DNA of 64,000 bases from Podarcis cretensis (Eukaryota). Below the pieces are notes generated by a model. The model saw only the letters and a program-made list of their open reading frames with translations. It did no database searches and was not told where the DNA came from. The stretch covers positions 71,486,001 through 71,550,000 of the forward strand of contig OX638155.1 in assembly GCA_951804945.1 (NCBI GenBank), read 5' to 3'. The translations under genes were made by a program, and so were the position numbers. Shown in pieces: positions 60,323 through 60,430 of this stretch (the stretch's first letter is position 1; every line of letters begins with the position of its first letter).

Positions 60323-60430
60323 CAAGGATCACTCAATGTATCCTATCTTTTGCGAAGATGCAATCAGATTACTTCGATCCCGTACGATGTGCCGTACCTA
60401 TTCTGAGGGTGCTTACTATGAATTTGAGAG
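60323..60430 (+). CDS. RIMS2: Probable alternative 108-nt exon: (S)KDHSMYPIFCEDAIRLLRSRTMCRTYSEGAYYEFE(R)
   Basis: ttttggcag|CAAGG ... TGAGAG|gtataa; phase 2 to 2, stop-free in the required frame, 5 CpGs in a CpG-poor intron, pyrimidine/YCAY-rich flanks. Confidence 0.7.

Follow-up and report, generated by a model that had tools for sequence, protein, structure and literature searches.

Does the lizard RIMS2 gene carry, between the regions encoding the C2A and C2B domains, an optional exon that mammals do without, and what would such an exon add to RIM2? The C2A-C2B linker of RIM proteins is heavily alternatively spliced, and in RIM1 and RIM2 this same region has the phase-2 cassette architecture of the exon considered here; the label "splice site B" for the linker reportedly comes from Wang and Sudhof 2003. 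Our window, a stretch of 64,000 nucleotides from Podarcis cretensis at positions 71486001-71550000 of contig G000:C7, covers the PDZ-to-linker part of the gene, as judged from named homologues, and the exon lies at 60323..60430 (+). Everything that the initial annotation had read directly from the DNA was reproduced: the coordinates, the length of 108 nt, the AG..GT splice sites (ttttggcag/C...GAG/gtataa), the 2-2 phase with 35 whole codons and two split codons, the frame without a stop, the peptide, and the five CpG dinucleotides, with at least five being found in only 3.7% of the window's 108-nt tiles. The acceptor region (60293..60322, +) is pyrimidine-rich and without an AG until the acceptor AG itself at 60321-60322, and the donor GTATAA occupies 60431..60436 (+). 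Since nine stop-free AG..AG/GT candidates occur across the window, the appearance of the splice sites alone is not decisive.

What establishes the exon as real is a 3,697-nt contig of run X3 that is spliced to neighboring exons on both sides. This contig, from one of the four contig runs compared with 59250-61250 (X3, X7, X8, and X10), matches 60320-60431 exactly and continues at one end into the last 30 nt of the exon at 58617-58682 and at the other into the next exon, over its initial 30 nt, with one mismatch in each stretch; the next exon lies on G000:C7 just past the window end. The predicted junctions from 58682 to 60323 and from 60430 to the next exon are thereby found in a sequence of presumed RNA origin, the only one of six contig runs to contain the spliced form; the X8 match covers 36 nt of intron only. 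Raw reads (X20 and X22) reached neither the 108-nt nor the 114-nt exon and are uninformative about expression. A protein search agrees with this picture. It matched 814 of 815 candidates, and the 120 matches listed comprise 119 named squamate RIMS2 isoforms and one unnamed protein; the same two neighboring exons flank the peptide in all 119 named proteins, and the peptide is unchanged in 66 of them. The gene is RIMS2 rather than RIMS1, as the flanking exons match RIMS2 and the paralogue sits at another locus (G000:C3). A single-protein search returned no second genomic copy of the exon. Canonical splice sites, a length divisible by three, an open frame, spliced junctions, and isoforms that skip it together identify this as a cassette exon, so that both the contig and the annotated isoforms bear out the frame-preserving cassette first proposed for the variable linker. 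That it is a conserved cassette of RIMS2 we regard as practically certain.

Conservation extends into the introns. The exon and its flanks (60287..60491, +) can be aligned with unspliced contigs from two other species, with 13 differences over 205 nt in X7 and 10 over 174 nt in X10; one exonic change is listed, and it is synonymous. The residues read through 5' of the exon resemble those of one snake-like and three fish-like genomic open reading frames, and at the donor an R-Y continuation is found in eight of nine genomic read-through frames, the ninth stopping there. The initial annotation had also drawn attention to YCAY motifs and a GCATG in the flanks; the motifs are present, but their counts are at chance level and the GCATG is not conserved. 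By first-order Markov resampling, YCAY is found seven times upstream versus 5.5 expected (P 0.31) and seven times downstream versus 4.9 (P 0.22), GCATG once downstream versus 0.27 (P 0.24), and TGCATG not at all. The GCATG is altered in both of the other-species unspliced contigs that cover it, X7 and X10. Enriched and conserved YCAY clusters or (T)GCATG elements, by which Nova or Rbfox control would be recognized, are therefore not seen beside this exon.

How old is the exon? A search restricted to short proteins gave 21 matches, 17 of them named (one lizard, birds, and turtles); 15 of the 17 carry the exon, either whole or from an internal Met, and two skip it. From a representative library came ten matches, seven of which are copies of the exon in read-through genomic frames; the other three, unrelated repeat proteins, were dropped. 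When a fish-like copy served as the query, all 32 matches were teleost RIMS2 proteins or unnamed teleost models, including Danio rerio RIMS2 X10, and no reptile was returned, which shows how narrow the word filter of the protein search is. The peptide is thus matched by RIMS2 isoforms of squamates, birds, turtles, and teleosts, and its presence in teleost RIMS2 makes the exon older than the fish-tetrapod split, which took place over 400 million years ago. It is an alternatively spliced RIMS2 exon common to reptiles, birds, and bony fish. The same exon with the same neighbors is seen in Zootoca RIMS2 X1 (XP_060133653.1) and Danio rerio X10 (XP_073787660.1). Calling it poorly annotated was accordingly mistaken: RefSeq and UniRef models from lizards to zebrafish already include it, so that as annotation it is nothing new, and the zebrafish orthologue is probably in VastDB as well. 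These isoform models are automatic and give the exon no function. A literature search, with Wang and Sudhof 2003 outside its scope, returned no paper that deals with the exon, with its motif, or with a loss in mammals.

The exon does not stand alone, as had been supposed, but is one of several phase-2 exons in a block. Exons of 66, 108, 72, 63, about 75, and 78 nt, all of them 2-2 in phase and freely combined, are bounded by exons of 114 nt and 174 nt. The 66-nt optional exon (58617..58682, +) is the one to which the 108-nt exon is spliced in X3, and the 114-nt exon before the block (48098..48211, +) joins the 108-nt or later exons in skipping isoforms. A tandem acceptor (cag tag) at 48095/48098 gives this pre-block exon 117- or 114-nt versions, and at the far end the first residues of the 174-nt exon (L003 about 235-260) differ between squamates and birds or turtles, the lizard having two fewer. 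Annotated models of gecko, turtle, tinamou, and fish skip the 108-nt exon, and one zebrafish isoform model omits its counterpart alone. Skipping was seen in 5 of 178 reptile and bird proteins and in 10 of 78 fish proteins, counts that are not inclusion rates, since both sets were chosen for carrying the exon.

The members of the block are unequally conserved. The peptide of the 108-nt exon is 83% identical between lizard and bird (duck) and 49% between lizard and zebrafish, the corresponding values for three neighboring optional exons being 57 and 38%, 57 and 35%, and 58 and 17%. The 63-nt neighbor, at 95 and 50%, is similarly conserved, and the constraint may therefore be a property of the whole block. 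Part of the block is also older than the duplication that gave rise to RIMS1 and RIMS2, given that a later exon (L002 7416-7490, beyond the window) is clearly paralogous to an exon of lizard RIMS1 (G000:C3), with a score reached by one of 60 and none of 60 shuffles. For the 108-nt exon, tblastn of 140 kb of lizard RIMS1 gave no counterpart, nor did one emerge when 17 candidate phase-2 exons were scored against it in pairs (shuffle P of 0.67, 0.70, and 0.15 in three versions).

Mammals were not among the named matches of any of these searches (120 listed of 814, 17 named of 21, and the 32 fish-query matches), an absence that, given the narrow search filter, is no proof of loss. The variants Trp1042 and Arg1170 of human RIMS2 lie 128 residues apart (PMC7273530). 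In duck numbering, leaving out the four optional exons together puts an Arg at exactly this distance past the matching Trp. A junction Arg is likewise reached with the four all present, and the remaining 14 of the 16 combinations fail; the Arg962-Trp1042 spacing is off by one to two residues in reptile numbering, so that some further combinations are also possible. Human numbering of the NM_001348484 type, one transcript only, fits skipping of the block, and the human reference transcript probably lacks the exon, as the initial annotation had stated for the canonical mammalian RIM2. Human brain circRNA ends flank an interval of 15,191 bp (PMC8355340, file 13) that, judged by spacing, likely corresponds to the stretch between the 66-nt and 174-nt exons (hg19 chr8:105,010,479-105,025,669); the lizard interval measures 15,552 bp. 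Among the rows listed in file 13 no circRNA boundary falls inside the human interval, and file 1 of the same source gives no novel exon there, a weak negative result. Loss of the exon in mammals is plausible, and for placental mammals in particular we think that it probably took place.

When is the exon used? Zebrafish protein segments translate into exon lengths of 96, 60, 75, (45), and 57 nt, and Dataset S10 of PMC9303857 contains rims2b exons of 96, 60, 75, and 57 nt in ascending order, rims2b being on the + strand of the same zebrafish assembly (table in PMC8096273). On the strength of four lengths that match in + strand order, we take the 96-nt VastDB exon DreEX0062268 as most likely the zebrafish orthologue, an assignment by exon lengths and order rather than by DNA alignment. 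It differs from the lizard exon in being 12 nt shorter at its 5' end; the residues before it are encoded by the upstream exon in that fish. In the wild-type eye, inclusion of DreEX0062268 is 2.3, 10.2, 14.0, and 43.6% at 48, 60, and 72 hpf and 5 dpf, and in srrm3 mutants it is 16.1% at 5 dpf (PMC9303857). According to the same source, long exons as a group drop in these mutants only at 5 dpf, during photoreceptor degeneration, and rims2b expression is lower as well. As the drop of DreEX0062268 coincides with both, the effect of srrm3 on it is likely indirect. Chicken retina-specific RIMS2 exons measure 51, 45, 90, and 236 nt; the retina-specific (RetLONG) list in Dataset S1, where coverage gaps are possible, has no RIMS2 exon of 108 or 96 nt, and the retina list has no zebrafish rims2 exon (PMC9303857). 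With the exon missing from these lists, inclusion tied to neuronal maturation in general is just as likely as a photoreceptor-specific pattern. The 11 of 27 supplementary files of Tapial 2017 (PMC5630039) that were searched contain no RIMS2 row. A-to-I recoding was considered for the exon and rejected, the two sites of zebrafish rims2b lying about 44 kb upstream (PMC8096273); one of these sites is edited at about 89% in that source.

The conserved core of the encoded peptide has two parts, a predicted amphipathic helix and, after it, M-x-R-x-x-S-[ED]-G-A-Y. The helix is predicted for exon residues 10-18 (60351..60377, +), where the hydrophobic moment of 0.73 exceeds that of 99.5% of linker windows; an AlphaFold model of the 36-mer, modest in quality (mean pLDDT 63), places a helix at the same residues with a block pLDDT of 74. 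The helix suggested in the initial annotation is thus supported as a prediction by both the moment and the peptide model. The full-length AlphaFold model (mean pLDDT 33, with even C2A below 50) is of no use for the exon. Searches with the peptide gave no Pfam family, nothing credible in the PDB (one match, E 0.59), and no usable match in the Atlas.

The second half of the core, M-x-R-x-x-S-E-G-A-Y (60387..60416, +; Ser codon 60402-60404), is a predicted CaMKII or AMPK-family phosphosite. R, S, G, A, and Y around the Ser are invariant in 34 aligned proteins of lizards, snakes, birds, turtles, and fish, so that the RxxS noted at the outset has proved conserved, its role as a kinase site being a prediction from sequence. 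At position -5, Met is found in 16 of 19 distinct variants and Lys or Thr in three; R and S were set by the search pattern in that comparison, and their invariance comes independently from the 34-protein alignment. The exon carries the conserved hydrophobic-x-R-x-x-S-x-x-x-hydrophobic pattern of AMPK-family and CaMKII sites, which is found in 3 of 16 RxxS of the lizard linker and in 1 of 11 of the zebrafish linker, this last being the exon's own site. The AMPK-family consensus is LXRXXSXXXL, and sites of this type can serve for 14-3-3 binding as well (PMC6890249). The CRTC and class IIa HDAC sites described in that source share with the exon a hydrophobic residue at -5, Arg at -3, and a hydrophobic residue at +4; the exon differs in having Met and Tyr for Leu and a -5 position that is not invariant. 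Its +2 residue is Gly, whereas a classic 14-3-3 site has Pro at +2, which one CRTC3 site likewise lacks (PMC6890249). Active-zone RxxS sites, including RIM1 Ser1141, are CaMKII or PKA targets, and the class gains phosphate upon nerve-terminal stimulation (PMC4894758). RIM1 Ser1141 occupies a different place in the linker and is no homologue of the exon's Ser.

As the overall explanation, we lean towards reading the exon as a phosphorylation-controlled docking element in the C2A-C2B linker of maturing neurons. In this scenario, the exon adds about 36 residues to the linker, and its inclusion would increase as neurons or photoreceptors mature, as suggested by the zebrafish orthologue assigned by lengths. 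Less certain is that the first half would fold into an amphipathic helix upon binding a partner, and least certain is the phosphorylation of the motif Ser by CaMKII or an AMPK-family kinase (BRSK/MARK/SIK). The phosphorylated Ser would possibly make a 14-3-3 site, and its phosphorylation would tune RIM2 scaffolding at active zones. For the exon we found neither a phosphopeptide nor a partner nor any functional data, and the phospho-docking mechanism as such is tentative, held with less confidence than the overall explanation.

The closest competitor, which we consider unlikely, keeps the fold-on-binding helix and dispenses with phosphorylation, the RxxS being retained merely as part of the binding surface. 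Besides the top-percentile hydrophobic moment, this reading could draw on the P, E, A, L, L, R, and S of the first half, which are invariant in all ten aligned exon copies, and on a hydrophobic fraction of 0.40 in the exon versus 0.21 in the linker. However, the invariant columns of the 34-protein alignment surround the Ser and not the helix, and the helix itself is putative and has no known partner. It is more improbable still that the block acts mainly as a length and charge spacer between C2A and the PxxP/C2B region, or is conserved for splicing at the RNA level, with a peptide that has no specific partner. The freely combining 2-2 exons, the conserved intronic flanks, the 970 isoforms predicted for zebrafish rims2b (10.1101/2025.11.17.688901), and a human reference transcript that apparently manages without the block would all suit such a role, but the residues that stay unchanged between lizard and zebrafish cluster in one motif, and the sole exonic DNA difference listed for two other species is synonymous. 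Finally, a short RIM2 isoform (linker and C2B) starting in the exon from an internal promoter is very improbable: four annotated isoforms, Pogona X40 (a lizard), Chrysemys X9 and Natator X21 (both turtles), and Accipiter X45 (a hawk), start at one of the two Met codons of the exon (60336 and 60387, +), and RIMS2 internal promoters are known (PMC7273530), but there is no upstream CpG island (CpG o/e 0-0.07 over 58601-60200), both start contexts are weak, and RNA that is truncated at the 5' end or retains an intron also produces such models.

Returning to the phosphorylation-controlled docking element, a broader version would make the block an ancient multi-exon regulatory module of RIM2 in non-mammalian vertebrates, switched on as neurons and photoreceptors mature, combining a helix with a kinase/14-3-3 switch, and deleted in mammals. 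We find this version doubtful; if it were true, the active zones of mammals and non-mammals would differ in an unstudied phospho-regulated RIM2 interaction. RIM2 organizes release sites, and RIMS2 loss leads to a human cone-rod synaptic disease (PMC7273530). The published RIM2 work that we encountered uses mammalian isoforms. Should mammals lack the exon, the RIM2 made in zebrafish and chick models would have one more regulatory site, and the exon would offer a concrete handle, one Ser and one helix, on the function of a hypervariable linker.

Several other features of the gene were observed along the way. A 27-nt RIMS2 microexon follows C2A at window 36082-36108 (+); its length equals that of zebrafish rims2b DreEX0062259, whose inclusion drops in srrm3 mutants (PMC9303857). 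High-copy interspersed repeats occupy intronic positions at window 48600-50250, 54660-58520, 59070-59200, and 61275-62376. Further down the linker, beyond the window, lie an exon of the 90-nt class (L004 about 685-777) and a long acidic exon (L009 about 9250-9495), which probably correspond to the 90- and 236-nt retina-specific RIMS2 exons of chicken.
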